NCBI GenBank assembly: GCA_016794145.1
Contig: JAEUKP010000008.1
Location: forward strand, 21,199-85,198
DNA: 64,000 nucleotides
Origin: Alphaproteobacteria bacterium
GTDB taxonomy: Bacteria > Pseudomonadota > Alphaproteobacteria > Micavibrionales > Micavibrionaceae
Reading direction: 5' to 3'
Both the position numbers and the translations under genes were made by a program. This document shows positions 1,770 to 47,729 of this stretch, one piece after another (position 1 is the first letter of the stretch; each line of letters opens with the position of its first letter). A model generated the notes under the pieces. That model was not told where the DNA came from and searched no databases. It worked only from the letters and a program-made list of their open reading frames with translations.

Positions 1770-3401
1770 ATGACACATCCCATGGCGCAGGCCCCTCTCC
1801 TTTCTGTTCAGAATTTGACCGTGCGGTTTCAAACACCGGATGGGGTGTTTGATGCAGTCAAGGGCGTTAATTTCACCTTGGAAAAAGGCCAAACACTGGC
1901 CTTGGTCGGGGAGTCGGGATCGGGAAAATCGGTTACGGCCCTGTCTTTGTTGCAATTATTGCCCTACCCTTTGGCCTCGCACCCCACCGGATCCATCCTG
2001 TTCAACGGGCAGGAACTGGTCGGAGCCTCCCCCGCCACGCTGCAATCACTGCGTGGCGATAAAATCGGCATGATTTTTCAGGAACCTTTGTCGTCCCTCA
2101 ATCCGTTGCATACGATTGGCAAACAGATCGGCGAAGTCATTACCCTGCACAATCCCGCACTGAGCAAAGACCAGATCGACCAACGCGTTCTGGAATTAAT
2201 GGATATGGTCGGGCTGTCGTCTTTAAAATCCCGCCGGACAGCCTATCCGCATGAATTATCCGGAGGGCAACGCCAACGTGTGATGATTGCCATGGCGTTG
2301 GCCAACACACCGGATATCCTGATTGCCGATGAACCCACCACAGCACTGGATGTCACCGTCCAAGCCCAGATTCTGGAACTGTTGCAATCTCTGCGGGACA
2401 CATTGGGCATGGCTCTGATTCTGATCAGCCATGATTTGAATGTGGTTGAAAAAATGTGTGACCATATCTGCGTCATGAAACACGGAGAGATTGTCGAAAG
2501 TCGCAGCACGGCCGATCTGTTCCGGAATCCCCAGCACAGCTACACCCGACAATTATTGGCCTCTGCCCCGCGTCCGTCGCCCATTCCATCCAACCAGAAC
2601 GCGCCGGTTCTTCTCGATGCCCACGATATCTGCGTGTCATTTCCGACAAAGAAAACATTCTTCGGAAAAGTTATCGAACGTGTCACCGCCGTCGATCATA
2701 TCTCGTTCCAACTGCGCGAAAAGCAAACCTTGGGCGTGGTGGGGGAATCCGGATCGGGGAAAACAACTCTTGCTCTGGCCGTTTTAAAATTGATTGCCGC
2801 GACGGGGTCACTCACCTTCGAAGGACACGATATTACCGCGATAAAAGGCGCAGATCTCCGCGCTCTGCGTGCCCGTATGCAAGTCGTGTTTCAAGATCCG
2901 TTTGGATCCCTCTCTCCACGCATGAGCATTGCCCAGATTATCGGCGAAGGATTAACCGTTCATGCGCCCCACCTCACCGCCAGCGAGCGGGATGACCGCG
3001 TGGTACAGGCGTTGGATCGTGTGCGTCTGGATCCGGCTACACGTCACCGTTACCCGCATGAATTTTCGGGAGGCCAGCGCCAGAGAATCTCTATCGCCCG
3101 CGCCCTGATCCTCGAACCAAAATTGATCATTCTGGACGAACCCACATCGGCACTGGATGTCTCGGTACAGGCGCAAGTCGTCGAGTTATTGCAGGATTTA
3201 CAAGACCGCCTGAACCTGTCCTATATGTTTATCAGCCACGATTTGCGCGTGGTGCGCGCCATGGCGCATGATATTATTGTCATGAAGCATGGCCATGTTG
3301 TCGAGCACGGCCCTGCGGCACAAGTTTTTGATACACCGGCAGAGCCCTACACCCGCGCTTTGATGGATGCCGCCCTTCACCTGCGCACAGGTCACGCCTA
3401 A
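1770..3401 (+). CDS. yejF: ABC transporter ATP-binding protein with duplicated ATPase domains (YejF / oligopeptide-microcin C type)
   Basis: Two Walker A motifs (GESGSGKS, GESGSGKT), two LSGGQRQR signatures and two Walker B motifs (ILIADEPTTALD, LIILDEPTSALD). Length of 543 aa is typical of YejF. Confidence 0.8.
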   Translation: MTHPMAQAPLLSVQNLTVRFQTPDGVFDAVKGVNFTLEKGQTLALVGESGSGKSVTALSLLQLLPYPLASHPTGSILFNGQELVGASPATLQSLRGDKIGMIFQEPLSSLNPLHTIGKQIGEVITLHNPALSKDQIDQRVLELMDMVGLSSLKSRRTAYPHELSGGQRQRVMIAMALANTPDILIADEPTTALDVTVQAQILELLQSLRDTLGMALILISHDLNVVEKMCDHICVMKHGEIVESRSTADLFRNPQHSYTRQLLASAPRPSPIPSNQNAPVLLDAHDICVSFPTKKTFFGKVIERVTAVDHISFQLREKQTLGVVGESGSGKTTLALAVLKLIAATGSLTFEGHDITAIKGADLRALRARMQVVFQDPFGSLSPRMSIAQIIGEGLTVHAPHLTASERDDRVVQALDRVRLDPATRHRYPHEFSGGQRQRISIARALILEPKLIILDEPTSALDVSVQAQVVELLQDLQDRLNLSYMFISHDLRVVRAMAHDIIVMKHGHVVEHGPAAQVFDTPAEPYTRALMDAALHLRTGHA

Positions 3402-3484
3402 GCCACGTCATCACTTAAGCCAAATAAGAAAACCTGTTCATGATTTTTTATATACTTCGTTCGGTTAATGACCCGAAAAAAGAG

Positions 3485-3570
3485 CCCCCTCACCCCTCCC
3501 TCTCCCCGTGGGGGAGAGGGCAACGCAGGCTTAAGGCTGTAAGCCTTTAGCCGAAGTCGGGTGAGGGGGG
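3485..3570. repeat. palindromic repeat element, long variant (outer arms CCCCCTCACCC...GGGTGAGGGGG)
   Basis: Outer inverted arms enclose the hairpin CCCTCTCCCCGTGGGGGAGAGGG and a second AGGCTTA..TAAGCCT hairpin. It is the same family as 47583-47729 in the opposite orientation. It lies between the convergent genes yejF and traX-like. Confidence 0.8.
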
Positions 3571-3713
3571 CGAGTTCATAAAAATAAGCGCATTTTATTT
3601 GACGTAGGCTATAACAGTTTTCTTCGTGCGCTTTGTGGTGAAAAAAAGAATAGGTCACGCGAAGGTCGCAAAGAATTTTCCCTCTCGCACATCGGGGGAC
3701 GACACACCCTCAA

Positions 3714-4529
3714 CTACCCTTTTCCCGCCGGAAATAATGTCGGGGCGAAGGCGTGCACTCCTGCATCGGCATAAAGCAGATAGGCTTTGATCGCCAACAA
3801 ATGAAACACATAGATTTCCAAAGTATACCGCCCGCAAAAACGAATGATCCCGCTCACAGGGCGCGGGAAAAATTCTGTCAGCTTCGGGAATTCTGCAGGC
3901 CGGAACGTAAAAAACATGGCGCAACAAATAACCACAATCCCGATGCCAGTTACCAAAGATTGTGGCCTATTAAATCCGAAAAGAAAGACTTCTATTCCTG
4001 CCACAGCAAAAGATGCTACCACCGCATATAACGACAATCCCCATGCGGGGATGGGTATTCTCTCGCGCTGACGCATCCCGTAACCAATCAATCCCAATAA
4101 AATCGCCAGACTGCCATATTCAAACAAGGCGTTGGTGGGGATAGATAAAATCACCAACGCCACCACGGCATAAATCACTGGCTCGGCCCCTTTGAAGGTC
4201 ATCTCGCCAAAGCGCGGCATCGCCAAGCGGATCACAATAAACGACACCAACGCATTCAACGGCAAGGTATATTGCCCCAAAATCATATTTCCAACGATCA
4301 GTAACCCCGCACCGGCCCATAATTTTGGTTCGATAGAGTAGTTGCGGGCATATCCGGCCAGAATGAACCAGACCGGAAATCCAAAACGGCCAAACACGCG
4401 CCACCACGGCTCGTCCGGCAGGAAATACGCGCCCACATGGTCGATCAGCATAAAGACAAGTGTCGCCGCTTTCACCAGATCGTAACTGGTAATCACAGCG
4501 GGCAAATGATCGTTGCGTTTAAAAAACAT
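3714..4529 (-). CDS. TraX-family integral membrane protein
   Basis: 271-aa polytopic membrane protein. Its N-terminus (DLVKAATLVFMLIDHVGAYF) matches, as far as I recall, the TraX-family motif (K..A...M.iDH.g). Confidence 0.5.
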   Translation of the reverse strand: MFFKRNDHLPAVITSYDLVKAATLVFMLIDHVGAYFLPDEPWWRVFGRFGFPVWFILAGYARNYSIEPKLWAGAGLLIVGNMILGQYTLPLNALVSFIVIRLAMPRFGEMTFKGAEPVIYAVVALVILSIPTNALFEYGSLAILLGLIGYGMRQRERIPIPAWGLSLYAVVASFAVAGIEVFLFGFNRPQSLVTGIGIVVICCAMFFTFRPAEFPKLTEFFPRPVSGIIRFCGRYTLEIYVFHLLAIKAYLLYADAGVHAFAPTLFPAGKG

Positions 4530-4541
4530 CCTAGCCGATCC

Positions 4542-7394
4542 CTATAAAAAATTCTGCGGATCAATATCCACAATAACCCTGACGGCAGATGGAATTTTCA
4601 ATCCGCCCAACCATGCGGCAATCATTTTCTGGATATTCAAATTCTTTTCGGCGCGGATCAAAATCCGTTGACGATATTGTCCCCGTATCCGGTACATTTG
4701 CGCAGGCGCAGGCCCCAAGACCTGAACCCCTTCCACACGGGGAGCCGCCCGCCCGATCATCACCGCAATCTCTTTGGTGTGCGTTTCATCTTTTCCCGTA
4801 ATAACCAGCGCCGCCAAACGCGAAAAAGGTGGCATCCTGGCGATATGACGTTCGGCGGCTTCGGCTTCCAGAAACGCATCCCGATCATCCGCCGCAATCA
4901 TCTGCATCACACGTTGTTCGGCATTATAGGTTTGCAGGAAAACGCGCCCCTTTAAATGTTCACGCCCCGCGCGCCCCGCCACCTGATGCAACAATTGATA
5001 ACTCCGCTCTGTGGCGCGTAAATCTCCCCCGCTCAACCCCAAATCGGCATCTATAATACCGACACACGTAATCTGGGGAAAGTGATGCCCCTTGGCAATA
5101 ATTTGTGTGCCGATAATAATATCTACCTCGCCATTCTTGATGGCATCCAACGCCGCAATTAATTTGTCATGCGTATCTGTGATATCACTCGCCAAAATCA
5201 GGGAACGGGCTTCGGGGAAATATTCTTTAACCTCTTCGGCAATGCGCTCGACCCCCGGGCCACAGGCGACCAACGACTCCGGCTCGTGGCATTCGGGGCA
5301 CGCAACCGGAATGGGCATGGAAAATCCACAATGATGGCATTGTAAATGCGGCGGCGCATAATGGGTGCGCCGATGCTCGACCAACCATGCCGTACATTTG
5401 GGGCATTCCATGCGATGCCCGCAACTGCGGCAGAGCGTCAGCGGCGCAAAACCCCGCCGGTTCAAAAACAATAAAGCTTGCTGCTTGGCCGCCAATGTTT
5501 TCCGCACTTCCTCAATCACAACAGGAGATAAGAAATGTTGCCGTTCCGGTTTATCCACCCGTAAATCCACAATGCGAATATCGGGCTTGCTGGCGCCTCC
5601 GTAACGATCCGGCAATGACAGAAGGGTATACCGCCCTTCCCATACATTCTGCATGGTCTCGAGCGACGGGGTGGCCGATGCCAACACCACCGGAATTTTA
5701 CCCAGATGCGCCCGCACCACCGCCATATCGCGCGCGTTGTAAATCGTGCCCTCTTCTTGTTTGAACGCCGGATCATGCTCTTCATCCACCACGATCATGT
5801 GCAAATCGGCATAGGGCAAAAACAACGCGGATCGCGCCCCGACAACAACTTTGGTTTGACCCGTCACAATGCTCCGCCATGTCAGACGGCGTTGTGCCGG
5901 CGTCAAAGATGAATGCCACAGCGCAGGCTTGCCCCCGAAGCGCGCCGCAAAACGTTGAATAAATGCATTGGACAACGCAATTTCCGGCATCAGGATTAAA
6001 ACCTGCCCCCGTTTTTCGGCGATAATTTTGGCGATCGATTCAAAATAAACTTCGGTTTTTCCCGATCCCGTCACCCCATCCAACAAAAAGGCTTCAAATC
6101 CACCGGAATCAATCCGTGCATTGATTTTATCGGTCGCGGTTACTTGCTCCGACGTCAGCGATTTCGGAGCAAAATGCGGATCCGGATGCGCACACGGCGC
6201 GTTGGCGAAAATATCAATCGCTTGCAACACACCATGCTTGACAAACGTTTTTATTCGGGACGCACTCAGGCCCGTCGCCTGTGTAATCTCGGATAATCGC
6301 CGCGGAAGACCGTCTTCCAAAAGGGAGATAAGCTTCTCTGCATTCTCACAAAAAGCCCCCTCACCCAACCCTCTCCCCGTTGGGGCGAGGGCTATTCCTT
6401 CTTTAACTCCCTCTCCCCGTGGGGGAGAGGGTTGGGGTGAGGGGGAATCTTCTAAGGAAGACTTTTCCAAATACTCAACAATACGACTTAAAACACCCTC
6501 TTGATTTTCTAAAATCTCATTATTCCAGAAACGAAGAACGAAAAACCCCTGTGCCTCCAATGCCGCATCACGCTGGGCATCATAGGCCGCATTTTCTGCG
6601 TGCTGCCCACCATCCAGTTCCACAATCAATTTTTTTTCGATACAGACAAAATCAGCAATATACGGCGGGATCGGATGCTGCCTACGAAACTTGTACCCTG
6701 CCAAACGTCTATCTTTTAACACATGCCACAGTTTCTTTTCGACATCTGTCTGATTTTGCCGCAAATGAATGGCGTTCTGGATGCAATATGCCGGAGGTTT
6801 TGCATGAAATTCTTTGAGAGGATGAGAATCGCCCCCCTCACCCCTGCCCTCTCCCCCACGGGGAGAGGGAGTTAAAGAAGGAATAGCCCTCGCCCCCACG
6901 GGGAGAGGGTTGGGTGAGGGGGAATCTTGTGAGGGGGAATCTTGTGAGGGGGAATCTTGTGAATAGGAAGCCCTTTCCCCCAATATATACCCCGTCATTG
7001 GCTGGGCTGGCTCCAACGCCTGCGGCACGGATACCGCCATTTTCAGCACAGATCCCCGCCGTTCCATATTATATGTCGCAACCCAGTCGATAAATTGCCG
7101 CTGGACGGCCTCCATCGGCGGGAGATCATGCCTCACCAGAACAGATTTCAACTTAGAGGATGGAATAACATCCCCGCCAGACTCCCCGCCCTCTGCCACA
7201 GCCCAGACAACCCCATGCGCCACGCGCGGCCCCAAAGGAACGCTGACATAATCGCCCAGCGCCAATTCCATACCTTCGGGAATCAGGTAATCATAGGCTT
7301 TTTCAACCGGAGACGTGACCAAAATACTGCAAACGGACATCTTGCATTCCTGTAACGAGAAAGGCATGATGCCCTTATTCTTCATCTTTGACAA
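4542..7394 (-). CDS. priA: primosomal replication-restart helicase PriA carrying an in-frame ~200-aa insertion (DUF559 nuclease domain plus translated palindromic repeats)
   Basis: PriA N-terminus [21 protein letters not shown] (the likely true start is M19 at 7340). Walker A is GVTGSGKT and the DEEH box is VVDEEHD. The Cys-rich zinc region (CRSCGH..CPKC..CHHCG..CPEC) is intact. The ORF is 950 aa, and the residues from about 144 to 347 are foreign to PriA. Confidence 0.9.
6356..6445. repeat. palindromic repeat element, short variant (left flank of the DUF559 cassette)
   Basis: CCCCCTCACCCAA-CCCTCTCCCCGTTGGGGCGAGGG-C-TATTCCTTCTTTAAC-T-CCCTCTCCCCGTGGGGGAGAGGG-TTGGGGTGAGGGGG. This comprises outer arms plus two internal hairpins. 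It is translated within priA as ...[29 protein letters not shown]... Confidence 0.9.
6832..6922. repeat. palindromic repeat element, short variant, inverted copy (right flank of the DUF559 cassette)
   Basis: By hand alignment, its reverse complement differs from 6356-6445 by about three substitutions and one extra G. The central spacer GTTAAAGAAGGAATA is the exact reverse complement of TATTCCTTCTTTAAC. Confidence 0.9.
6916..6960. repeat. perfect 15-bp tandem repeat x3 (GAGGGGGAATCTTGT) at the outer edge of the cassette
   Basis: Units lie at 6916-6930, 6931-6945 and 6946-6960. The first unit overlaps the terminal arm of the palindromic element. On the minus strand it encodes (SQDSP)x3 in PriA. 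Confidence 0.95.
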
Positions 7395-7411
7395 TAAAAG
7401 GACGTAATACC

Positions 7412-8092: not shown

Positions 8093-8227
8093 ATGATTCG
8101 TACACTAGGACTTGTTTTTGTATTGGTTACAATTGCGATTGGACTGTCTTCCTGTACCAACACGGTTCGAGGCGTTGGTACGGATATTGAAAAAGTTGGC
8201 CAAGAGATCCAAAGGTCAACAAAGTAG
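8093..8227 (+). CDS. small lipoprotein, entericidin EcnA/B-like (44 aa)
   Basis: Too short for the ORF track. AGGAGA lies at 8081-8086 and the ATG at 8093. The product is MIRTLGLVFVLVTIAIGLSSCTNTVRGVGTDIEKVGQEIQRSTK, with a lipobox (GLSSC) and the NT.rG.G.D.e..G pattern typical of entericidins. Confidence 0.65.
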   Translation: MIRTLGLVFVLVTIAIGLSSCTNTVRGVGTDIEKVGQEIQRSTK

Positions 8228-8234
8228 ATCGTCA

Positions 8235-8942: not shown

Positions 8943-8965
8943 CCCTCTCCCCCAAGGGGCGAGGG
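8943..8965. repeat. single hairpin of the palindromic repeat family (CCCTCTCCCC-CAA-GGGGCGAGGG)
   Basis: Lies between the plsY stop (8933) and the dprA ATG (8980). The dprA SD (AAGGAGA, 8967-8973) follows it directly. Confidence 0.7.
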
Positions 8966-10095: not shown

Positions 10096-10129
10096 TTATA
10101 TTATAAGAAGAGTGAAGAACGACAACAAA

Positions 10130-10232
10130 GCCCTCGCCCCAACGGGGAGAGGGTTGGGTGAGGGGGGAATGCTATAAAATAAAAGCATAAAAAAACTTCA
10201 AGAACATCGTATTCTTCGTGGTTCAAAAAAGA
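10130..10232. repeat. composite repeat module upstream of topA (half palindromic element, A-rich spacer and a TTCTTCGTGGTT box)
   Basis: GCCCTCGCCCCAACGGGGAGAGGGTTGGGTGAGGGGGG (10130-10167) equals the right half of element 6832-6922. AAAAAACTTCAAGAACATCGTATTCTTCGTGGTT (ends at 10223) aligns with 18217-18250 upstream of murA. Confidence 0.75.
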
Positions 10233-19647: not shown

Positions 19648-20349
19648 ATGAATCAGAATATTGCCCAGTCTGTGCCTCCTCCGCCGCATCATAGCGGCCA
19701 TCGGGATCGTCTGCGCGAACGTTTTGTCAAAGGCGGGGTTGAGGCTTTGGCCGATTACGAGATTCTGGAACTGATCCTGTTTCTGGCGCTCCCCCGCCGC
19801 GATGTCAAACCTTTGGCAAAAAAACTGATCCAGTCTTTCGGGTCCCTGAATAAGGTTTTTCATGCGTCCATCCCCGATCTTATTTCTTTTGGGCTTTCTG
19901 AAAATACAGCCATTTCGATCAAGATGATCGAAGCAGCCTCTTTTCAGCTCATGAAAAAAGATATGATCGGACAAACAGTTCTCAACAGTTGGTCCAAATT
20001 AATCGACTACGTTCAGGCAACGATGGCCCATGAACAGAAAGAACATTTCAGGCTTCTGTTTTTGAATAAAAAAAATGAATTGATTGCGGATGAGGTTCAA
20101 CAAACCGGAACCGTGGACCACACACCGGCTTACCCGCGCGAGATTGTTAAACGCGCGCTGGAACTATCATCCACTGCTATCATTCTTGTTCACAACCACC
20201 CGAGCGGTGATTCAACACCAAGCAAAGGCGATATTGATATGACCCAAGCAATTATCGCGGCGGCCAAACCTTTGGGTATTGTAATTCATGATCATCTGGT
20301 TGTTTCAAAAAAGGGTGTCGCATCTTTAAAAAACAAGGGACTGATGTAA
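19648..20349 (+). CDS. radC: RadC-family JAB-domain protein
   Basis: GHRDRLRERF...LELILF (HhH region) and the C-terminal JAMM motif ILVHNHPSGDSTPSKGDIDMT. Confidence 0.9.
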   Translation: MNQNIAQSVPPPPHHSGHRDRLRERFVKGGVEALADYEILELILFLALPRRDVKPLAKKLIQSFGSLNKVFHASIPDLISFGLSENTAISIKMIEAASFQLMKKDMIGQTVLNSWSKLIDYVQATMAHEQKEHFRLLFLNKKNELIADEVQQTGTVDHTPAYPREIVKRALELSSTAIILVHNHPSGDSTPSKGDIDMTQAIIAAAKPLGIVIHDHLVVSKKGVASLKNKGLM

Positions 20350-20447
20350 TCCCTGATAAGGTCGTGTGTTCTTTTATTCAAATTGGTTATAGATTTAGGG
20401 CATATCATCAATAGGGGCTGTAGAAAACGCAGAGAGTTTTTACTCCA

Positions 20448-20526
20448 CCCGTCATTCCGGCGAAAGCCGGAATCTTGAATCTGTTGAAATCAAAGAGATA
20501 CCAGCTTTCGCTGGTATGACGATAAG
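20448..20526. repeat. second palindromic repeat family (double hairpin GTCATTCCGGCGAAAGCCGGAATC ... GATACCAGCTTTCGCTGGTATGAC)
   Basis: Nearly identical to the reverse complement of 53542-53620, with a few mismatches by hand alignment. An inverted pair of the TTCTTCGTGGTT-type box follows at 20554-20580. Confidence 0.85.
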
Positions 20527-20657
20527 TGTTTCCAGAGGTGGCGTATAAGATTGAACCACGAAAGAAACTTCTTCGTAGGTCAAAAAGCGCGAGTTTCCTG
20601 ACAAAATCTGTCAATTCATGACACGCCCTAACGCCTTCCTAAAATGCTCTCTCTTTT

Positions 20658-21221
20658 TTATGGTTTTGGTCCCGATGTTTTGTAACAATAAATTGACGTG
20701 TTACAAAAATATCGGGATAAGCGATCTTCAGAATCCGCAACCCATTCAGGTATTGGGAATGCACAAGAAATAATACATTTACCTGCCCCTAATGTTGAAA
20801 ATAAAGGAGCCAACTGTTTCATATGATTCGGTGAAAGATAACAAAAAACAATATCTGCATCGGATATATTTTGGTTCAAAAAATTCGTGCTATAGACTGT
20901 GATATTTTTCGATCTCATCCACCCTCTTATTTTGGATAGAATAAAAGGACAAGGTGAGATTTCGTATCCCACAACTTCGGAATTGGGAAACAAATTGGAC
21001 AATGCAATCAAAACGCCCCCCCATCCGGACCCTAAGTCAATGATCTTATACGAACCATTTCTGTCGAATGTGTCTGGAATAAGGCTCAGCGCTCTATTCC
21101 GCACATGCCTTAATGTCGGGGCGGGCACAACCTTTGTCTTCCTTTCGGCATGAAACGAAATCAAAACAGAGATCATAATAACCAAGAGCAGAACAACATA
21201 TATAAGTTCAAAAATAGACAT
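20658..21221 (-). CDS. membrane-anchored class I SAM-dependent methyltransferase
   Basis: N-terminal TM helix (IYVVLLLVIMISVLISF), motif I IIDLGSGWGG and post-I VVGYEISP. The short seven-beta-strand core ends in CAFPIPEW. Confidence 0.7.
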   Translation of the reverse strand: MSIFELIYVVLLLVIMISVLISFHAERKTKVVPAPTLRHVRNRALSLIPDTFDRNGSYKIIDLGSGWGGVLIALSNLFPNSEVVGYEISPCPFILSKIRGWMRSKNITVYSTNFLNQNISDADIVFCYLSPNHMKQLAPLFSTLGAGKCIISCAFPIPEWVADSEDRLSRYFCNTSIYCYKTSGPKP

Positions 21222-21546
21222 TTAGAATCTTTCCTAACCATGGGACTCTATCACATATATGCTGTTAATATCTTTCATTAAAAATGTGAGTGTTTCAGCC
21301 TCTTGATTCCCCTCGACAGATGAGAGAACTTGAAATTCCTTATCAGGTCATTTCAAAAATTTATAATGCAATGACATCAACACAATAACACCTTACAACA
21401 GCCATACAAAAACTGCATAACTTATATAAATAATAATTATATCTTGAATAAAAATGAATTTCGATACGCGCCGTCATGAATCTTTGACTCGTATCGCCAA
21501 AAGGCGTATATTCTTCATTATTCATTAGGATTTATTGGAGGCTATC

Positions 21547-22308
21547 ATGGCTTTATTTCAAAATGCGTCCAAAGCCCTTAGAAAATGGGGCCCAGCTGCT
21601 TTAACAACTTTCTTTATGGCAGCCAATGCCAATGCTGCTGATACAAACGTTCCCATTAAACTTACTTGTTACACAAAGCCTGAGGATATTGCTGCTGTTA
21701 AAAAAACAATTACTGAAGATCTCGGTATGATAGCAACCACATCGCATTTCACAAATGCTGGGACAAATGACACTCCGAACTGGGCCATGGCGACTCTTAT
21801 GCGGAATCCTGAGACTAGAAAAGGCTACGAGTGGATTCGCCGCGGAGATGGCCATGTCTGCATTTCAAAAAGCTACAGCAATATTGAGCTGTACCTCAAT
21901 ACTCAACTCAATAGTAAGGCATTCCTAGATAAAAAATCTGCCCCAAAAGCAGACGACGTTGGTAACGGCAAAGATATTTCTGAAAGTGGCATAAATGCGG
22001 TACTAATAGCTAGTGCCCAAAATGGTGAATTTCCAATGTATCGTGGCGATGTGAATGATATTATTGGCTCTCGTATTCGTGGCGTTGCTCAATCAAGGTC
22101 ACCTATACAATACACTGAATATCTAGTTGCAAACCCAAATACAGGAGAAGGTACTGTCCTAGCATCTAGGTTTAATGGTCTAGTGATTAAAGAGTATACA
22201 AGTGTCGTAGGAACACCAGAAAAAGATGGTGTCAAGTTTGGGGCTATTTTCACTCCTGCTGGTCAGCAGATTGTTGACCTAATGAGATCTCCTCTTGCCC
22301 TTAGATGA
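21547..22308 (+). CDS. hypothetical secreted protein (orphan)
   Basis: GGAG lies 6 nt before ATG 21547. The signal peptide is MALFQNASKALRKWGPAALTTFFMAANANA|AD. No family recognised. Confidence 0.6.
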   Translation: MALFQNASKALRKWGPAALTTFFMAANANAADTNVPIKLTCYTKPEDIAAVKKTITEDLGMIATTSHFTNAGTNDTPNWAMATLMRNPETRKGYEWIRRGDGHVCISKSYSNIELYLNTQLNSKAFLDKKSAPKADDVGNGKDISESGINAVLIASAQNGEFPMYRGDVNDIIGSRIRGVAQSRSPIQYTEYLVANPNTGEGTVLASRFNGLVIKEYTSVVGTPEKDGVKFGAIFTPAGQQIVDLMRSPLALR

Positions 22309-22315
22309 AAAATAA

Positions 22316-23287
22316 CTACATGAATGCTTGGGCACTGGCTTGAACTTTTGCGATGGTTGTTACACCCTCCATCTCTTTTTCTCGTTCTCGCCAGTTTTCT
22401 CTTTGATTTTCTGAGGTTCGTATTGCACTTGAATAGTTGTATACGGAAGTCAACCCTACAGTTTTGGGAAGATCGTCCCTTGCACTTGCAGCCACATAAG
22501 ACACACGGTTTTGGGAGGCTTCCTCTTCCTGAATTTTTTCTCTTATAGCCGTCACCGTCCCATTAGAAACCCCTTGCAGATTTCTAATTTTATCAGCCAT
22601 ATCCTGATTGTGTTTAACTGTTGCATCCAACCCTTTCTTATCAACATAATTTACGGCCTCTTGCGCCACAACTCGAAACTCTTGAGAACTCTGGATCTGA
22701 CGAAGACGGTGCTGCTCTTCTTCAGTTAGTTTTTTGCCATCCTGCTCTTTCTTTTTGAGTTCAATATATTCATTTAACTCTTTCATACCCTTGTCAATTT
22801 TCTCTTTGTCTTTGGGGTATTTACCTGTCAGCCGAGACCTTAATTCCTTTTGCTTTTCAGGATCACTGATGAAATCAATCATTCTTGCCAAATCATGCCC
22901 GGACATTCTGATACCACCAAAATCATGATCTGGCTTGTTTAACCACGCATCACGTCTTGCGGACTCAGCTTCACGATAACGATCCGCTTCCTCTCTTTTA
23001 TTTTCCTTCGCTTCTTCTCTGCGCTCGCGTCCTGCCGCCGTGACTATACGCCCATCATCCCCACCCCCTTTTCCGAGAGCGGCGCCATTTTCTTCAGCCA
23101 CTTGCTTGGCACTCTCCCTTTCTGCCGTTTCAACCCCCGGATCAGGAGAGAAAACCTGTGCGTCTAATGAAGGCTCTCCACCCTGAGCAGCGAGAGAATC
23201 CTCGGCTTGCGCGACGTCAACAGGAGCCTCGCCAAGCATCCCTATTTCTGTCTCGACAACCGAGATGTCTTCAAAATCGTCTGCCAC
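22316..23287 (-). CDS. hypothetical protein, highly charged with predicted coiled coil (orphan)
   Basis: 323 aa with an acidic N-terminus and Lys/Glu/Arg-rich helical stretches (REEAKENKREEADRYREAESARR; KELNEYIELKKKEQDGKKLTEEEQHRLRQ). No signal peptide. Confidence 0.55.
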   Translation of the reverse strand: MADDFEDISVVETEIGMLGEAPVDVAQAEDSLAAQGGEPSLDAQVFSPDPGVETAERESAKQVAEENGAALGKGGGDDGRIVTAAGRERREEAKENKREEADRYREAESARRDAWLNKPDHDFGGIRMSGHDLARMIDFISDPEKQKELRSRLTGKYPKDKEKIDKGMKELNEYIELKKKEQDGKKLTEEEQHRLRQIQSSQEFRVVAQEAVNYVDKKGLDATVKHNQDMADKIRNLQGVSNGTVTAIREKIQEEEASQNRVSYVAASARDDLPKTVGLTSVYNYSSAIRTSENQRENWREREKEMEGVTTIAKVQASAQAFM

Positions 23288-23536
23288 GTTCTATCCCCCT
23301 CAGAATAGACATAAAGTATTGGGATTCACCACCAAAAGACGTGATTCTTACCCACACCCTCAGTTTAACGCGCAAATGTTAAGAAATATTATGTTAATTG
23401 ATAAAATTTGAATAAAATTTGATAGACTATTCCACAAAAAGCAGAAAGCCATTGAATATCATAGTGTTAGCATATGTTAGAAAAAGATATCCTGAGGGGG
23501 ATATATGTGGACTTAAACCCTTTTTCTATACTTCCA

Positions 23537-23728
23537 TTATATCAAGTATACACAAAAAAACAAGTCTTTTTTACACATCCTATAGCTGAACCAAATAAGA
23601 ATGATTGAAAGATTTCCGAACCTCCGCAATCCCGTCGTATAAAAATATCCACGTGCGGATAAATGCCTCCCCCAAACAATCTGGTAGCGATAATAAACAA
23701 CCGCATAACTCCCAATGCGGGGGTTCAT
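23537..23728 (-). CDS. small hypothetical protein (63 aa), aromatic/Arg-rich with a hydrophobic tail
   Basis: Near-ideal SD: the minus strand reads AAGGAGAatagtctATG. The product is MNPRIGSYAVVYYRYQIVWGRHLSARGYFYTTGLRRFGNLSIILIWFSY... Confidence 0.35.
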   Translation of the reverse strand: MNPRIGSYAVVYYRYQIVWGRHLSARGYFYTTGLRRFGNLSIILIWFSYRMCKKDLFFCVYLI

Positions 23729-23971
23729 AGACTATTCTCCTTAAAATGGCCAAAGCCTCTTTCCAGCTAAAAACCAAGGTTTTTCTCGTCTAAAAAGAGA
23801 CAATAAAAATCTTGAACATTACTCAAAATCGACCTATTATCTTCCCATAAAAATTAAAAAGTTGGTTGAATACAAAAATTATGCTCAAAAAAAGTTGAAA
23901 GAAACCATCCAAAATTGGTTTGGCTATATTGGCTATATTAAGTTCTTATCATTATATACAGGGAACAAATT

Positions 23972-25003
23972 ATGACACTAAAAAAACCAAGCATTTATGC
24001 TCTTGCCTTTGCCCTTGCCTCTACACCTATACTACAGACCCAAAATGCATATGCACAAAACAGCCAGATAAATGTCCACGAAACTCATTGCATTCAAAAA
24101 AGTCCGAAAGATATTTATAGCTTCTCAACGTTGTCCGTATATTTAAGCTCATGCATGTATGCGTTCAACAGAACAAGATCCCCAGCTATCGCGTGGAATG
24201 CAGCATGGGGACAACTTCAAATGGCAGCACATTACCACTACTTTAAAAAACCATTCCCATCTAATTATAATTATATTAGAGAGGCAACCTTACTTACAAA
24301 CAAGCTTAGAGCTTCCCAATATTATAATGTGACTCCACTAGATGAAGCTATAGAAAGAATAACCGCAAATCATCGCCAATATCAACCTCTTAATTCCGCA
24401 TCTGGCACAGACACCTCTACAGAGGCAAAATGTGTTTATGGCGTAACAGATGACGAAGCAAGTTTTAGAAATTGGTTTTCTCAATGCGCTACAGCATATA
24501 ATCAGAACCAGAACCCTTATTTAGCCCAATTATACGGGACTGCACTCGCAATGAATGCCAACATTTTATATGAGCGCGGAAACCCAGGAGAGGCCAAAAA
24601 ATATTTCGAGACAAGCAAACGTTTTGAAGCTTATGCCGACAGCATGGGCTGGAGCACCCCACCATTCAAAGAGATAGTCGGAATGGTACAAAGAAAACTA
24701 GATCCTAACAGCCCCAATAATCCAGCCGTCGCTCAGCAAGAAAGTCAAAAATCTGGTCTAACGGCTGCTCAAAAAGGAGCCTTTGCGGTGGGCGCATTGG
24801 TTTTATTTGGCCTGCTGTTTGGAGGAAGCTCTGGATCAGAAAATACATCCTCTGGGCAGTATGGCGATCCAGGCGAATTCCAACGTGAACGCGAACAGAA
24901 TGAGGCAAGGGCTAGGAATGAACGAAGACATGAGCCCCAGGAACAACGCTCATATGGCCTACACGGCGACTGTCCAGGACCAGGCATGGGCTATAGGTGT
25001 TAG
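23972..25003 (+). CDS. hypothetical secreted/membrane-tethered protein (orphan)
   Basis: Signal peptide MTLKKPSIYALAFALASTPILQTQNAYA|Q. It has a C-terminal TM helix (GAFAVGALVLFGLLFGG) followed by a charged tail. Confidence 0.6.
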   Translation: MTLKKPSIYALAFALASTPILQTQNAYAQNSQINVHETHCIQKSPKDIYSFSTLSVYLSSCMYAFNRTRSPAIAWNAAWGQLQMAAHYHYFKKPFPSNYNYIREATLLTNKLRASQYYNVTPLDEAIERITANHRQYQPLNSASGTDTSTEAKCVYGVTDDEASFRNWFSQCATAYNQNQNPYLAQLYGTALAMNANILYERGNPGEAKKYFETSKRFEAYADSMGWSTPPFKEIVGMVQRKLDPNSPNNPAVAQQESQKSGLTAAQKGAFAVGALVLFGLLFGGSSGSENTSSGQYGDPGEFQREREQNEARARNERRHEPQEQRSYGLHGDCPGPGMGYRC

Positions 25004-25054
25004 ACCAAATCAAATTATTATGAGAGCATTATTGTTCTTCATTGGCCCGGTAAT

Positions 25055-25176
25055 CCTCCCTCACCCAACTCGGGCTGAAGGCTTAGAGCCTTAGGCCTCG
25101 GTTACCCTCTCTCCGGTGGAGCAAGGCGAGGAAGAAAAATTCCCGGCTAAAATTGAAATCATTTTATTTGAATTCT
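25055..25176. repeat. degenerate copy of the long palindromic element plus a shared tail
   Basis: CCTCCCTCACCCAACTCGGGCTGAAGGCTTAGAGCC... aligns with 47583-47680. The tail AAATTCCCGGCTAAAATTGAAATCATTTTATTTGAATTC aligns with 47682-47729. Confidence 0.65.
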
Positions 25177-25198
25177 CATATATCGGCTTGCGCCAAGA

Positions 25199-27067
25199 TT
25201 AAGACAATTGCTTTAGAATCATCAATGCACGATACATCACGTCATTTCCATCTTCGGACATAACTGATTCAGGATGAAATTGAAATCCAATCAATCGATC
25301 ACCTTGCATCACAATAATACGTCCATTTTCATCAAGATCATATCGGAGATCAACCCGCGCGCGCGCCTCATCCGTAAAGACAGGCGAAAACGAGTTATAA
25401 AAACCAAGCCGCCGCATTTGACCAAAGACCCTCACCTGGCGCTGTAATCCCTGCGTTGATTCATCTTGACGCTTAACAATTAAGCCCTCGTTGACCGCGA
25501 TTGCCTGGTGCCCCAGGCAAATACCCAATATTGGCTTGCCTGATTTTTTAAGATGCGTGATGATTCCCTGCAATTTTTTCATACGAGGATGATTCATATC
25601 TGTCGGATCTCCGGGCCCTGGGCCAAGAACAATAATATCGCTCTCATCCTTTTTGAAATCATACTCAAACGTATCGACAACCGTTACAATTGCACCAGAA
25701 ATTCTGATCATATGCCCAATCATATGCGCGAAATCATCCTCGTTATTGATGATCGTTACCTTAAATCCATTGAGATTATGCTGAGATGCGGCATAAGGAT
25801 TTTGTCGTTCCATCCAAAACGCCGATAATTTTTTATTTCTTTCTGCTAATAACGGCGCATATTTCCTACGTAGGTCGGATGATAAATATTCATCACTGGT
25901 GATTGTTGCCCCTGTCATCACCCCCATCATTCCCATAGCTTTGGCGCGGGATTCCTGGGCCTCTTCCTCTGGGACAGAATCACGCACCAATCCCCCACCC
26001 GCCTGAACATGAAATGTTCCGTCCCCAAACATTTCTGCGGTCCGAATAAGAATAGCCGTATCAATATCACCATACATATCCGACCGACGGGGGGCAAAAT
26101 AAACACCAATTTCTGCACCATAATAACGACGCGATGTTTTTTCATACTTGGCAATAATCCGCGCGGCACTTTGCAACGGCGACCCGACTACTGTCGGCGC
26201 ATGCATCGCCCTTCGCAAAGCATCAATCGAATTGGCAGACCGTCGCCCCACCAGTTCATATTCTGTATGAACAACGGCGCCTATCTCACGGAGATACGGG
26301 CCATAAACATCGCCACCCTCTGGCGCGATGACTCCCATAATCTTCATCTCCTCATCAACAACCTGGAACAACTCATTGATTTCTTTTGGATCTTTTAAAA
26401 ACCGCTCCAGTCGCCCTTCAAAACTGGCCTGATCCTCCTTGCGAAGAGTCCCCGCAATAGGAATCATAATCGTTTCATTTCCGGTTACTTCAATATGACG
26501 TTCAGGTGTTGCCCCGATCAAATATTGGCTTTTGAATGGATCAGATGGGTGCACATTTCCAAACAAAATGGTCATATACTGTCCACGCGATAGCAATAAT
26601 TTACGATAAATAGCCAATAGAACATCGATATCGAGCCCATTTACTTTGCCGAAAAATTTACGTGAAATTGTTGTTTGCGATGCATTCCCCCCCCCGATTT
26701 CATTGACCTGAAAATCTTTGATCAATTGAATATACTCTGGATCGGATATAGAGGGGGTCATCTCCCCTTCTAGACTGATCGGGATATCTTTAATTTGCGC
26801 GATCACATCCGCTTTATCCCATGTCATTGACCGTCGAACAGTCATCGCCAGAATAGGCTCATCCCCCAACGCATCAAACCCACGTTCACGCAGACATCGG
26901 TATGGAAGAGCAAAAACAACATCTCTGGTTTCTGCAACTGATAAAGCATGAATATCGTCCAAATATTCAAGAGAATGAAGATCCCCCTGATAAAAGGTCA
27001 CACGCCCTGCTTTTTCAATCACAGCAAATGGCGCCTGAAAATTGATAAAATCATGAAAACTTTTCAT
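25199..27067 (-). CDS. fused chorismate-utilising enzyme and class I glutamine amidotransferase (TrpE-TrpG / PhzE-type; anthranilate or 2-amino-2-deoxyisochorismate synthase)
   Basis: N-terminal chorismate-binding domain (GATPERH...IAGT.R...VVDEEMKIMG...HTEYELVG...APTVVGSPL...RRYYGAEIG...DTAILIRTA). C-terminal GATase (ILGICLGHQA...FQFHPES). Length of 622 aa, and I see no LLES-type Trp-feedback motif. Confidence 0.75.
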   Translation of the reverse strand: MKSFHDFINFQAPFAVIEKAGRVTFYQGDLHSLEYLDDIHALSVAETRDVVFALPYRCLRERGFDALGDEPILAMTVRRSMTWDKADVIAQIKDIPISLEGEMTPSISDPEYIQLIKDFQVNEIGGGNASQTTISRKFFGKVNGLDIDVLLAIYRKLLLSRGQYMTILFGNVHPSDPFKSQYLIGATPERHIEVTGNETIMIPIAGTLRKEDQASFEGRLERFLKDPKEINELFQVVDEEMKIMGVIAPEGGDVYGPYLREIGAVVHTEYELVGRRSANSIDALRRAMHAPTVVGSPLQSAARIIAKYEKTSRRYYGAEIGVYFAPRRSDMYGDIDTAILIRTAEMFGDGTFHVQAGGGLVRDSVPEEEAQESRAKAMGMMGVMTGATITSDEYLSSDLRRKYAPLLAERNKKLSAFWMERQNPYAASQHNLNGFKVTIINNEDDFAHMIGHMIRISGAIVTVVDTFEYDFKKDESDIIVLGPGPGDPTDMNHPRMKKLQGIITHLKKSGKPILGICLGHQAIAVNEGLIVKRQDESTQGLQRQVRVFGQMRRLGFYNSFSPVFTDEARARVDLRYDLDENGRIIVMQGDRLIGFQFHPESVMSEDGNDVMYRALMILKQLS

Positions 27068-27096
27068 TTTAAATCTCTATTCATATATTTAAGAAC

Positions 27097-28881
27097 CTAT
27101 CCGACAATTGCAGCATTATGCATGCGTGTATAAACCCCACCCTTCGGATACAATTCCTCATGAGTTCCAACTTCGACCACCTGACCTTTATCCATCACAA
27201 TGATTTTATCCGCATGCTGGATTGTTGATAAACGATGCGCAATCATTAATGTTGTTCGCCCCTTCTGAAGGCTTTCAAGCGTATGCTGAATGGTCCGTTC
27301 TGATTCATTATCAAGAGCCGATGTCGCCTCATCGAGAAACAAAATGGGGGCATTCCGTAAAATTGCGCGCGCAAGCGATATGCGTTGACGTTGTCCACCT
27401 GACAAAAGAACCCCGTTTTCGCCAACTTCCGTATCAAATCCTTTCGGCATTTTGAGAATAAAGTCTTCGGCAGCCGCCGCACGGGCCGCTGAACGAATTT
27501 GTTCAGGCGTTGCCTCCGGCAACCCGTATGCAATATTACCTGCAACTGTATCATCAAAAATCGTAATGTCCTGAGATACCAATGCAATATGACGGCGCAA
27601 GCTGGACAAAGTCAAATCCCGGATATCTGTTCCATCAATCAAAATTGTTCCCGATTGAGGGTCATAGAACCTAAGAAGGAGAGACAGAATAGTTGTCTTA
27701 CCAGAGCCAGAGGCCCCGACCAGAGCTGTTACTTTTCCTGATTCTATTTGTAAAGATACATCATTCAAGGCCTTTGTCGTATCAATCCCTTCATAAGAAA
27801 AAGAAACGTGATCCAAACGGATATCAGGGACATTAACATTGAGGTCTTTTGCGTTGATCTTGTCTGTTACGCTTGCTTGCCGGGACATCATATCCTGCAC
27901 ACGCTCAGCCGCACCCAACCCCAATTGCAAAGAATTGTTGAGTTTTGCCAACTTTTTCATCGGTTCATACGCCAACGCAAAAGCAGCAATAAAAGACATT
28001 AATCCACCAGGTGTTAACTCTCCCTCTGCGATCCTGTACCCACCATAAACAATGACACCAAAAACGACAGCCCCCACCAAAATTTCGTTAATTGGCGTTG
28101 ATAGATTGCTAATACGTGCTGCTTTAATATTCAGATGACGAACAGACAATACCGCATGACCGGCCCGTTCTTTTTCACGCTCTTCCATCCCATAAGCCTG
28201 CACTTGGCGAATCCCCTGAAAAATCTGACCCAAAACCCCCATCAGGTTCGCAGTTTCCCCCTGAATGGATTTAGAGATTTTTCGCAACCTCCGCCCCAAA
28301 TACGCAACAAGACCAGATGCTAAAGGAAAAATTGTCAATGCAATCAAGGATAAATGCCAATCCTGCATCACCATAACGACCAAAAGAAAAATAAGAGTTA
28401 GCACATTGCTGCCCACCCCTGTCAACGTATCGACAACTGCAATCCGCATTACATTGACATCGTTCGTCACACGGGAGACCAATTCACCACTCGGGTATTT
28501 GTGAAAAAATGTTAGATCCAGAGTCATAAAATGTGAAAAAACATCATTCTGGATATCTGCCACAACCGACTGACTGATTTTATTCATTTTTATTGTTTGC
28601 AGATACGTTGCAATACCACGAACGGCAAACGACAAAAAGATCATTCCACCCAAAGGAATAATAACATGAAGAGTCGATGGGTCGTTCTGGACCCCAATCA
28701 TCGCTTTATCAAGAACAGGTTGTAGCAATTTTGCAAACAACGCTGTTGCTGCTGCCGCAACAAGCATAAAAAAAAGGGCAAGGCAAAGCTGCCCGACATA
28801 AGGACTCATGTATTTTCTGACCAATGGCAAAAGAATATCAAGTGTCGATTTACTGATCTTTTTTGTATTTATATCCTGCAT
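27097..28881 (-). CDS. msbA: ABC exporter, fused permease and ATPase (MsbA-like lipid A/lipid flippase family)
   Basis: Six-TM domain followed by an NBD (GASGSGKTT, LSGGQRQRISLARA, ILFLDEATSALD). Length is 594 aa. The symbol is assigned by family resemblance only. Confidence 0.7.
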   Translation of the reverse strand: MQDINTKKISKSTLDILLPLVRKYMSPYVGQLCLALFFMLVAAAATALFAKLLQPVLDKAMIGVQNDPSTLHVIIPLGGMIFLSFAVRGIATYLQTIKMNKISQSVVADIQNDVFSHFMTLDLTFFHKYPSGELVSRVTNDVNVMRIAVVDTLTGVGSNVLTLIFLLVVMVMQDWHLSLIALTIFPLASGLVAYLGRRLRKISKSIQGETANLMGVLGQIFQGIRQVQAYGMEEREKERAGHAVLSVRHLNIKAARISNLSTPINEILVGAVVFGVIVYGGYRIAEGELTPGGLMSFIAAFALAYEPMKKLAKLNNSLQLGLGAAERVQDMMSRQASVTDKINAKDLNVNVPDIRLDHVSFSYEGIDTTKALNDVSLQIESGKVTALVGASGSGKTTILSLLLRFYDPQSGTILIDGTDIRDLTLSSLRRHIALVSQDITIFDDTVAGNIAYGLPEATPEQIRSAARAAAAEDFILKMPKGFDTEVGENGVLLSGGQRQRISLARAILRNAPILFLDEATSALDNESERTIQHTLESLQKGRTTLMIAHRLSTIQHADKIIVMDKGQVVEVGTHEELYPKGGVYTRMHNAAIVG

Positions 28882-29067
28882 AATATCTTTGTTTTATACG
28901 TGGTTATCCACGATTGTTGATAGATGTTATATTCTACTCTGCTTTTACCGTACAATAAAACTACAAATTGGCACGCCACAGCCCCCTCCCCCCGCGAGTG
29001 GGGACTATTTTAAAGCCGTTTTCTTATTACCCCACACACCTTATCAAATGACTTTCGGAGCATGGGA

Positions 29068-31127: not shown

Positions 31128-31198
31128 AACTTGAATTCCTATACTGTAATATTCCCCGATAGCTTATATAGAATAAAGACCAGAAACAAGTTACCAGA

Positions 31199-32062: not shown

Positions 32063-32069
32063 TGCGCAT

Positions 32070-38332: not shown

Positions 38333-38333
38333 C

Positions 38334-47548: not shown

Positions 47549-47582
47549 GATTCACACGATCCGAAAGAGCTATAAGAGCGAT

Positions 47583-47729
47583 CCCCCTCTCACCCGACTC
47601 CGGCTAAAAGCCCTCAAAAACTCTGGGGCTTTAAGCCTACGTTGCCCTCTCCCCCACGGGGAGAGGGTGGGGTGAGGGGGCAAATTCCCGCCTAAAATTG
47701 AATCACTTCATTTGAGTTCGGCTATATAA
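47583..47729. repeat. long palindromic element plus shared tail (inverted relative to 3485-3570)
   Basis: The reverse complement reads CCCCCTCACCCCACCCTCTCCCCGTGGGGGAGAGGGCAACGTAGGCTTAAAGCC...GTCGGGTGAGAGGGGG. The tail CAAATTCCCGCCTAAAATTGAATCACTTCATTTGAGTTC is shared with 25135-25176. Confidence 0.8.

Follow-up and report, generated by a model that had tools for sequence, protein, structure and literature searches.

A DUF559 nuclease domain between inverted hairpin repeats in an alphaproteobacterial priA gene: a probable selfish cassette

The DNA described here, referred to as the window, is a stretch of 64,000 nucleotides from an alphaproteobacterium of the family Micavibrionaceae (contig JAEUKP010000008.1, positions 21,199 to 85,198). 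Its priA gene, which encodes the helicase PriA, carries an in-frame insert (window positions 6356-6922) in which a complete nuclease domain of the family DUF559 is enclosed by translated palindromes. The insert is probably a selfish nuclease cassette of about 0.4-0.6 kb that spreads by recombination and is tolerated by PriA. Judged from sequence comparison, the cassette appears to consist of a gene for a ~100-aa Vsr-like (DUF559) nuclease set between inverted arms, each made of a hairpin and a G-rich tail, with the tails directed towards the gene. The arms are specific to this gene, their derivatives are dispersed, the insertion sites are many and unrelated, and the copies are patchy, replace each other and decay; together, these features form the signature of a selfish element and not of a host domain. 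A preliminary description of the same DNA had left two readings side by side, a selfish cassette and a useful nuclease embedded in PriA, and the arms, the unrelated hosts, the patchiness and the footprints favour the former. Cassettes of this kind are apparently widespread selfish DNA that has gone undescribed.

The nuclease insert in priA and its palindromic flanks

The reading frame on the minus strand is open for 950 codons without a stop (4542..7394), and priA likely starts at the ATG at 7340, which gives an intact coding sequence of 932 aa (4542..7340) with the insert included. With the NCBIfam PriA equivalog NF004070 the protein reaches 987 bits, where the cut-off is 921. The 3'-DNA-binding domain (3'BD), at aa 6-103 (7032..7325, minus strand), lies upstream of the insert and is matched by Pfam PF17764 with E=2e-15, while DEAD, Helicase_C, Zn_ribbon_PriA and PriA_C are found C-terminal of DUF559. 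The equivalog score and the full set of domains (3'BD, DEAD, Helicase_C, the Cys-rich zinc ribbon and PriA_C) identify the protein as PriA and agree with the preliminary description, which had read an open frame with intact helicase and zinc-finger motifs. Compared with the related contigs L001 and L003, the helicase part shows 2 nonsynonymous and 29-35 synonymous changes (omega ~0.02). The gene is thus not the pseudogene that had been considered as a refutation; it is intact and under strong purifying selection.

An AlphaFold model of PriA, run with 85 aligned sequences, has a mean pLDDT of 82.7, and its top Foldseek match is the PriA structure 4NL4 (target-normalised TM 0.80). Every PriA domain is modelled confidently, with pLDDT >90 for the 3'-DNA-binding domain. 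The insert is positioned between this domain and the winged-helix domain, and here Pfam and the model agree with the linker position that had been proposed. The DUF559 part (~aa 180-296) has a pLDDT of ~90 (range ~88-96). Values drop below 50 at aa 129-179, comprising a tandem repeat and the upstream palindrome, and at aa 297-326, the downstream palindrome. The nuclease is therefore modelled as the independent lobe that a structure prediction had been expected to reveal or refute, and it is held by two disordered Pro/Ser/Gly/Glu-rich linkers that are the translated palindromes.

The DUF559 / Vsr-like PD-(D/E)XK nuclease domain itself occupies aa 187-291 (6468..6782, minus strand). It matches Pfam PF04480 with E=4.2e-43 and 146.1 bits against a cut-off of 20.6, over profile positions 4-108 of 109, so the hidden Markov model check bears out the complete domain named in the preliminary description. 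A survey of PD-(D/E)XK enzymes groups DUF559 with Vsr and I-Bth0305I (PMC3424549). Vsr itself is a weak sequence match to DUF559 (E=8e-4). The nearest solved structure is PDB 3HRL, an uncharacterised Neisseria protein, by a sequence match (not superposed) with E=5.4e-30 over 96 residues. The domain in the window carries YIADF...IVELDGGQH and has all four conserved residues of the 99-aa core, D38, E49, D51 and H55. These four putative catalytic residues are invariant or nearly so in the DUF559 alignment, and 97-100% conserved among 38 PriA-embedded copies. To our knowledge, no member of the DUF559 family has a published substrate.

The insert of 567 nt is a multiple of three, and the DUF559 segment has no in-frame ATG, both as first described. 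The only other possible start in this frame, a TTG, lacks a visible ribosome-binding site. Since the nuclease has no start codon of its own in the window, it would be produced only as a PriA fusion. In a Pfam scan no Hint or intein family was found in PriA at E<=0.01, and the junctions are translated hairpin repeats; an intein or intron was rejected for lack of a Hint domain. A defence system was likewise rejected, as a PADLOC scan gave only a 13-bit match to DpdF, and so was a known RNA family, as an Rfam scan of 6000-7400 returned only microRNA-hairpin matches far under their gathering scores. On the plus strand, an antisense open reading frame (ORF) of 132 aa (6419-6817) extends across all of the DUF559 segment and has its only stop at the end, in a window with a GC content of only 46%. 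After an inversion this ORF would be out of frame with priA.

Each side of the domain bears a translated palindromic element. The element on the N-terminal side (6833..6922) is composed of a C-tail, a hairpin, a 17-nt centre, a second hairpin and a G-tail, and folds as single-stranded DNA with -33.3 kcal/mol (z=-4.9). The element on the C-terminal side (6356..6445), which is inverted relative to the first and present also in L001 and L003, folds with -36.9 kcal/mol (z=-7.1). That the flanks are reverse complements had been recognised by hand alignment; the inverted repeat measures 101 nt per arm (6345-6445 / 6833-6933) with 94% complementarity and 387 nt between, and the 90-nt cores (6356-6445 / 6833-6922) are 96.7% identical by BLASTN. 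Because the 17-nt centre is asymmetric (CTATTCCTTCTTTAACT versus AGTTAAAGAAGGAATAG), the two copies are truly inverted and not direct. A 15-bp tandem repeat, GTGAGGGGGAATCTT x3.3 (6914..6962; Tandem Repeats Finder, 100% matches), adjoins the upstream element and encodes (SQDSP)3. Each unit corresponds to the tail of that element extended by 5 nt, and the tandem repeat is absent from L003.

The 90-bp elements had been taken for the ends of the unit. Palindromes do flank the domain, but the conserved ends are shorter arms of ~35-40 nt, each a hairpin with a G-rich tail, and the 90-bp palindromes appear to be a separate dispersed repeat family made of the same modules. The hairpin module has 12 matches in the window and 0 in 100 shuffles. 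The hairpin family of the window, CCCTC(T/G)CCCC-N3-4-GGGG(A/C)GAGGG with the tail GGTTGGGTGAGGGGG, is found between genes too, and the same modules occur in intergenic DNA of related contigs. Between dprA and topA lies a solo arm with hairpin and G-rich tail (10129..10166, plus strand), whose 38 nt are 97-100% identical to the priA elements by BLASTN. An intergenic composite palindromic element at 3483..3570, with an orthologous copy in L003, consists of a C-tail, a hairpin, a second hairpin and a G-tail (fold -32.8 kcal/mol, z=-5.9). A second intergenic composite of the same family has the opposite orientation (47575..47681; -31.9 kcal/mol, z=-6.2), and a solo hairpin without tail lies between plsY and dprA (8943..8965). 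A metagenome scan for an exact 23-mer taken from the middle of the 90-bp element returned 0 matches and thus no sign that this particular palindrome is dispersed outside priA.

Distribution of the cassette in PriA, in other hosts and between genes

The 120 best relatives of the window PriA come from Micavibrio-like alphaproteobacteria. DUF559 is present in 36 of them and is in every case enclosed by peptides derived from hairpins. The alignment of orthologues that the preliminary description had proposed reveals a patchy insertion, with empty and occupied alleles at the same site. In the helicase-domain tree, carriers and non-carriers are interleaved to the tips. Identity in DUF559 does not follow identity in the helicase among 37 carriers (Mantel r=0.11, with 196/2000 permutations at least as high; Spearman 0.02). 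P0046 and P0081, the closest pair of carriers, share 96% identity in the helicase part and only 56% in DUF559, and the two proteins differ in arm class and leader length. Three insertion sites are found in PriA: the linker in most cases, a site directly before the Walker A strand (P0077, P0083) and a site after the Walker A helix (P0377). P0090, a close relative of P0077, has DUF559 in the linker instead. Arm footprints remain at the linker in about 12 of the 84 DUF559-negative PriAs. P0043 keeps both arms and the DUF559 leader and has lost the core. In the non-carrier P0087, the arm found in its carrier sister P0023 is still present. In PriA relatives the insert is distributed patchily, shows no coupling to the phylogeny of its hosts and has been lost repeatedly through deletions, with arm footprints left behind. 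An ancient domain fusion had been named as the outcome that would speak against a mobile cassette, and it was to show the same site in distant orthologues without flanking palindromes. The shared site is indeed found; the palindromes, however, are always present. Since the same-site copies always have palindromes and are patchy, the insert is not a clean ancient fusion.

Close relatives provide an allelic series at the priA linker. The linker is empty in L085, with 31 aa between PMTGY and DGLPRR, and L084 has one solo arm in frame (SPRGRGLGEGG). L002, whose helicase part is 86% identical to that of the window, has an arm, DUF559 and an inverted arm, with ~37 nt per arm. L003 has a single ~37-nt arm, a DUF559 that is 97-98% identical to the one in the window, 'EKSSLDVSPSDAP' and the 90-bp palindrome. 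In L001, whose PriA is 98% identical to that of the window, DUF559 is gone, and the tail of the cassette ('EKSSLDVSPSDAP') and the 90-bp palindrome are kept. The L001 allele is therefore an in-frame deletion and equals an L003-like allele that has lost the arm and DUF559 between GGAAAA microhomologies. In the N-terminal flank, the window has a whole 90-bp palindrome and the tandem repeat, which L003 lacks there. Because L003 has a single module at this flank, the 101-nt inverted repeat of the window would be a recent, strain-specific elaboration. In DUF559 the two differ by 4 synonymous and 2 nonsynonymous changes. At 0.07, the resulting dS is close to the value for the helicase part (0.09-0.11), which argues that the insert has been inherited vertically in a functional priA in this lineage.

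Gene calling on L003 (a JGI 3300056831 contig; 562-1098 and 2624-5407) splits priA into three genes and dprA into two. These splits are probably assembly homopolymer errors rather than real pseudogenes, and one of the frame shifts sits in a C-run at the start of the palindromic element. A small gene for an entericidin-like lipoprotein of 44 aa lies between the transaldolase gene and plsY of the window (8094-8228, plus strand) and is kept in all related contigs (L001, L002, L003, L084 and L085).

The arms were then compared in a genome sample, in which a DUF559 profile scan with one genome per species gave 80 loci from Alpha-, Beta- and Gammaproteobacteria, Desulfobacterota, Nitrospirota, Chloroflexota, Binatia and Elusimicrobia. 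Inverted repeats were scored between the 220-nt flanks, with a threshold of at least 17. The best flank inverted repeat has a median score of 25.5 at DUF559 and of 9 at shifted positions. The threshold is reached by 82% of 82 DUF559 loci and by 0.6% of 703 other genes at the same loci, and the share of DUF559 genes with inverted hairpin arms in the 80 genomes is 82-87%. Inverted flank repeats beat direct ones in 50 loci versus 12. No target-site duplication was found in 53 loci, where the best flanking direct repeat has a mean of 1.68 nt, compared with 1.58 nt in shuffled pairings. The preliminary description had recognised a transposon-like unit with terminal inverted repeats; its architecture stands, and the duplication expected of such a unit is missing.

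The design of the arms is nearly universal and comprises a C-rich/G-rich hairpin and a G-rich tail facing the ORF. In the main class, the hairpin CCCTCTCCC-N4-6-GGGAGAGGG is followed by YW and the G-rich tail GGGGTGAGGG. Variants include CCTTCCCCC...GGGGGAAGG-YTAGGATGGGGG and ATCACTCCCCCCTTGAGGGGGAGTCG. Within a locus, the left arm is nearly identical to the right arm. Arm class and nuclease sequence co-vary weakly (Mantel r=0.15, 1/1000 permutations). The ATCACTCCCCCCTTGAGGGGGAGTCG variant, with ATCACTCCCCCC arms, travels with one DUF559 subclade across metagenome-assembled genomes (MAGs) of Nitrospira (L004), Chloroflexota (L005), Candidatus Versatilivorator (L018) and Binatia (L067). A G-quadruplex motif, formed by the tail and the 3' half of the hairpin on the ORF-facing strand, is present in 54-58% of flanks and in 1.2% of control windows. 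The alternative between hairpin and G-quadruplex may matter for recognition.

Several further observations concern the arms. In the arms of L004-L083, GGGAGAGGG-TT-GGGGTGAGGGG fits the canonical G-quadruplex motif on the strand reading towards the ORF, and the window arms have the motif at 6409-6445, 6887-6922 and 10131-10166. It is curious that one of the cassette hosts is PriA, a fork-restart helicase. In Legionella anisa (L080, 9816-10478), the DUF559 arms are 147 nt long and AT-rich, with the CCCTCTCCC...GGGAGAGGG motif in their inner parts only.

Arms also occur without the gene. Near DUF559 loci, 81 solo arms were counted in 1308 kb, compared with ~12 expected from shuffles. Two copies of a 97-bp ORF-less arm pair in L061 still contain the cassette leader and the final 33 nt of the ORF and are deletion derivatives. 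In the same locus (3440-4560), two 129-nt units, 98% identical, form direct repeats around a small gene. Each unit comprises the last 33 nt of the DUF559 ORF, an arm, a 29-nt spacer and an inverted arm, and the spacer keeps the start codon and encodes a 19-aa mini-ORF (MNPPCKHPLTLTLSRRERE). Stand-alone DUF559 proteins have 110-120 aa and consist of the nuclease domain only. The family amounts to 41,793 clusters (50% identity) at E<=1e-3 in the representative library. A phage vector was considered and rejected, since only ~15 close DUF559 relatives were found in 2.9 million viral contigs.

The cassettes lie mostly between genes, and in the genome sample DUF559 is inside a host gene in 4 of 80 copies. 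By Pfam, host domains are found on both sides of DUF559 in the HsdS proteins of L004, L067 and 11 representative proteins, in an Eco57I-like enzyme (two copies), in the class I aminoacyl-tRNA synthetases P0337, P0373 and P0379, in a BioA-like class III aminotransferase (L015, 9062-10861) and in the BioF-like class I/II aminotransferase P0375. Three further hosts look AroE-like (P0347), PrmC-like (P0371) and aminoacyl-tRNA synthetase-like (P0256), to judge from flanking motifs alone. The junctions carry arm-type peptides in the host sequences inspected.

Among the long representatives, HsdS of type I restriction systems is the commonest in-frame host, and many of these proteins have an N-terminal nucleotidyltransferase domain. 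They include L004 (8834-11161), L067 (4689-6860), P0257, P0263, P0279, P0298, P0321 and P0363. A Methylase_S stretch stands on each side of DUF559 by Pfam in L004 and in these six P-numbered proteins. The insertion is in the central conserved region where the flanks were read (L004, L067, P0329, P0340), and the HsdS cassettes have a distinct class of arms (ATCACTCCCCCC...). One insertion in an aminoacyl-tRNA synthetase lies directly before the WTTTPWTLP editing-domain motif. The preference of in-frame DUF559 cassettes for essential genes is reminiscent of inteins. P0241 (377 aa) has three DUF559 stretches in a single protein, and P0242 (1214 aa, an Eco57I-like methylase) has two, with repeated 'LPSPREGVGEGSGVRAE' arm peptides between them; both proteins suggest tandem or nested cassettes.

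Proposed spread of the cassette and competing explanations

Spread of the cassette would be nuclease-initiated, recombination-dependent and homing-like. The DUF559 nuclease may cleave one or both strands of arm-type palindromes or of alleles that lack the cassette, and repair would then copy the cassette, with homology provided by the arms, the flanking host gene or both. Copying by repair would explain the missing target-site duplications, and also why whole cassettes replace each other at one site together with their arms. In an essential gene, the insert could persist because only a precise in-frame loss would be survivable and because the linker seems tolerant. The 90-bp palindromes and the 15-bp tandem repeat may be recent, strain-specific elaborations from the same modules. 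A bolder proposal is somewhat less likely than not: DUF559 cassettes, from a family of about 20,000-40,000 clusters in public data, may form an unrecognised class of autonomous mobile elements, in which the ~100-aa Vsr-like nuclease is the sole protein needed and recognises the hairpin/G-quadruplex arms, and in which host repair copies the cassette and its ORF-less derivatives.

Several points weigh against a selfish, mobile cassette. Nuclease activity, cleavage site and movement are putative, and mobility is deduced from the distribution alone. Known Vsr-like homing endonucleases owe their long target sites to additional DNA-binding domains, which DUF559 lacks, and about 13-18% of DUF559 genes (e.g. 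in Serratia) have no detectable arms. The similar dS values indicate that the cassette shared by the window and L003 was inherited vertically, and the best-documented recent events in this lineage appear to be a loss (L001) and remodelling of a flank, not a gain. The 101-nt inverted repeat is a liability in an essential gene with no counterbalancing benefit known, as an inversion between its arms would place 6 stop codons in priA. In the sense RNA, moreover, the two flanks are predicted to pair as a ~100-bp stem (-333 kcal/mol, z=-26), a potential substrate of RNase III, and the repeat configuration of this strain looks costly and possibly unstable. The phylogenetic tests have their own limits. 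DUF559 is short and highly conserved, its identities bottom out at ~55-60%, and the tree and Mantel tests resolve close pairs only. In a neighbour-joining tree of 99 DUF559 residues, about two thirds of the PriA-embedded copies fall in one loose group and the rest are scattered, and so short a domain does not distinguish one origin from several. In all close pairs, evolution is faster in the 3'BD and winged-helix domains than in the helicase part, and this rate may account for the divergence of P0046 and P0081 in their N-terminal part, which had been considered as a sign of co-conversion. With faster-evolving N-terminal domains, the uncoupling could be partly a rate effect, or the product of ordinary recombination between priA alleles.

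The main rival explanation regards DUF559 as cargo. The arms would be REP/REPIN-like repeats that are mobilised in trans, by a RAYT or an IS200-type HUH transposase, or by replication slippage or gene conversion, and the priA insert would be a REPIN-like doublet carrying a nuclease gene. Solo arms, ORF-less arm pairs and composite palindromes do exist without DUF559, in the window and at other loci. The arms match the dispersed repeats of each genome; for instance, 10129-10166 agrees with the priA flanks in all 38 nt. Between near-identical strains, the 90-bp palindrome remodelled the N-terminal flank and left DUF559 unchanged, and target-site duplications are missing as they are for HUH-type elements. 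Against this reading, the association is gene-specific (82% of DUF559 genes and 0.6% of their neighbours), one arm design recurs across many phyla, and the tails always face the ORF. The arm classes also travel with nuclease subclades across phyla, as the ATCACTCCCCCC arms do in L004, L005, L018 and L067. In addition, no other candidate enzyme is encoded within 5 kb of priA, the range to which the search was confined. The gene-specificity, the orientation rule and the joint travel of arm class and nuclease argue against mere cargo, which is considered unlikely.

Domestication is unlikely as well, and somewhat more so. An ancestral alphaproteobacterial fusion of PriA and nuclease would aid replication restart, for instance by processing forks or G-quadruplexes and hairpins, and patchiness would reflect repeated loss. 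The domain does occupy one shared linker position even where the PriAs have only 50-60% identity, its putative catalytic residues are conserved in 97-100% of the embedded copies, and losses are documented. In the window it has no start codon of its own, would be made only as a PriA fusion and is modelled as a well-folded lobe on flexible tethers. Against this, the domain is absent from 84 of the 120 closest PriAs, including that of a 98% identical strain. The insert phylogeny is uncoupled from that of the host, and whole cassettes with different arms replace each other. PriA has been entered at three different sites, and the identical type of cassette lies in unrelated proteins and, mostly, between genes. 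Finally, the flanking DNA retains a hairpin structure that a protein linker would not need.

A programmed inversion switch, in which the inverted repeats would flip the DUF559 segment and turn the nuclease (here PriA) on and off, is very unlikely. In one screen, 'DUF559 domain-containing protein' shows a 14-fold enrichment in the targets of programmed inversion predicted by computation, listed without comment (PMC9881135), and the inverted repeats of the window are long and nearly perfect. The flipped state would, however, put the 6 stop codons into an essential gene, and no invertase or recombinase is found among the ORFs within ~5 kb. Most arms have only 25-40 nt, largely taken up by a self-complementary hairpin, and such arms alone would yield the reported enrichment anyway. 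Least likely of all is an artefact or a dying gene, that is, a mis-assembled or pseudogenised priA: the gene is split into three calls in L003, but dprA is split there too, suggesting sequencing errors in that contig, and the frame in the window is open over 932-950 codons, the same architecture recurs in independent assemblies from different samples (L002, L003, L048 and many proteins), and the helicase part has an omega of ~0.02.

Relation to known elements and significance

The selfish cassette proposed here resembles several known systems in part. Vsr-like (EDxHD) homing endonucleases, such as I-Bth0305I and the free-standing enzymes of 'fractured genes' (PMC3239194, PMC2677866), are likewise small selfish nuclease genes of the Vsr/DUF559 branch. 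They also reside in essential genes of DNA metabolism, with presence/absence polymorphism at the same site and no target-site duplication. Polymorphism of this homing type at one site of a conserved host gene is found for DUF559 in PriA (36/120). In contrast, the homing endonucleases have extra DNA-binding regions of the NUMOD type and lie in introns, in inteins or beside split inteins, where splicing restores the host product. Neither extra DNA-binding modules nor residence in an intron or intein is found for DUF559, in the stand-alone proteins of 110-120 aa and in the PriA insert. Its nuclease is translated as part of the host protein, has inverted hairpin arms of its own and occupies many unrelated sites.

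REPtrons, in which a RAYT gene is flanked by inverted REPs (PMC3479197, PMC3733652, PMC6006769), share with the cassette one small nuclease-type gene between inverted GC-rich hairpins, solo and paired hairpins scattered between genes, co-variation of repeat class and enzyme, and the lack of target-site duplications. Their enzyme is an HUH Y1 transposase, whereas that of the cassette is a PD-(D/E)XK nuclease, and a Pfam scan found no Y1_Tnp match in the priA insert. The DUF559 arm ends in a G-rich tail with G-quadruplex potential, and the REPtron repeat has a GTAG/CGTC tag. RAYTs, moreover, usually exist as one stably inherited gene, in contrast to the cassette, which is patchy and occurs within coding sequences.

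In Rickettsia palindromic elements and Coxiella QMITEs (PMC1779305, PMC5896051, PMC10969869), palindromes are likewise tolerated in frame and translated as surface or linker peptides. The solo arm of L084 and the 90-bp elements of the window behave exactly like such in-frame palindromes. The whole unit differs from them, since the Rickettsia elements and QMITEs encode nothing and the palindromes of the cassette enclose a complete, conserved enzyme domain of ~100 aa and are specific to one family. Inteins are also in-frame selfish insertions, often with a nuclease; they prefer essential proteins of replication, repair and translation, and their loss must be precise. In contrast to inteins, the DUF559 insert has no Hint or splicing domain and no splice-junction residues, and is predicted to stay in the mature protein. 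The target-site duplication expected next to the terminal inverted repeats of IS/DDE transposons and miniature inverted-repeat transposable elements was not found at the 53 loci. Mycobacteriophage MPME elements are ultra-small (~0.44 kb), with short terminal inverted repeats and a single ORF of ~120 aa. They differ in protein family, ends and hosts, which are phages, and DUF559 cassettes are rare in viral contigs. Literature searches turned up no account of DUF559 within PriA or of a cassette that joins DUF559 to palindromes; the sole hint they gave was the enrichment table of PMC9881135. By analogy, the cassette seems akin to both homing-endonuclease-like and REPtron-like elements, and there is a substantial chance that it represents a new class of mobile element.

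These results have several practical consequences. The cassettes account for internal DUF559 'domain architectures' in PriA, IleRS, BioA and HsdS, and for the low-complexity 'GEGRGEG / SPSPQPSP' peptides that end many predicted proteins. In inversion screens, the arms account for DUF559 among the predicted targets. For protein engineering, the insertion sites mark positions at which essential enzymes tolerate an insertion of ~200 aa.

For DUF559, a large family of unknown function, the results indicate a biology of selfish elements, with the hairpin and G-tail arms as candidate substrate, and its function becomes testable. DUF559 is possibly a second enzyme family tied to REP-like repeats, previously linked to RAYTs only, which bears on the origin of such repeats. 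Besides introns and inteins, the cassette points to a third lifestyle for a selfish nuclease gene in an essential gene, in which it is translated and buffered by disordered linkers that derive from its own terminal repeats. If the elements are indeed autonomous, the cassettes would seed REP-like repeat families across phyla and would routinely colonise essential genes in frame, with no splicing.

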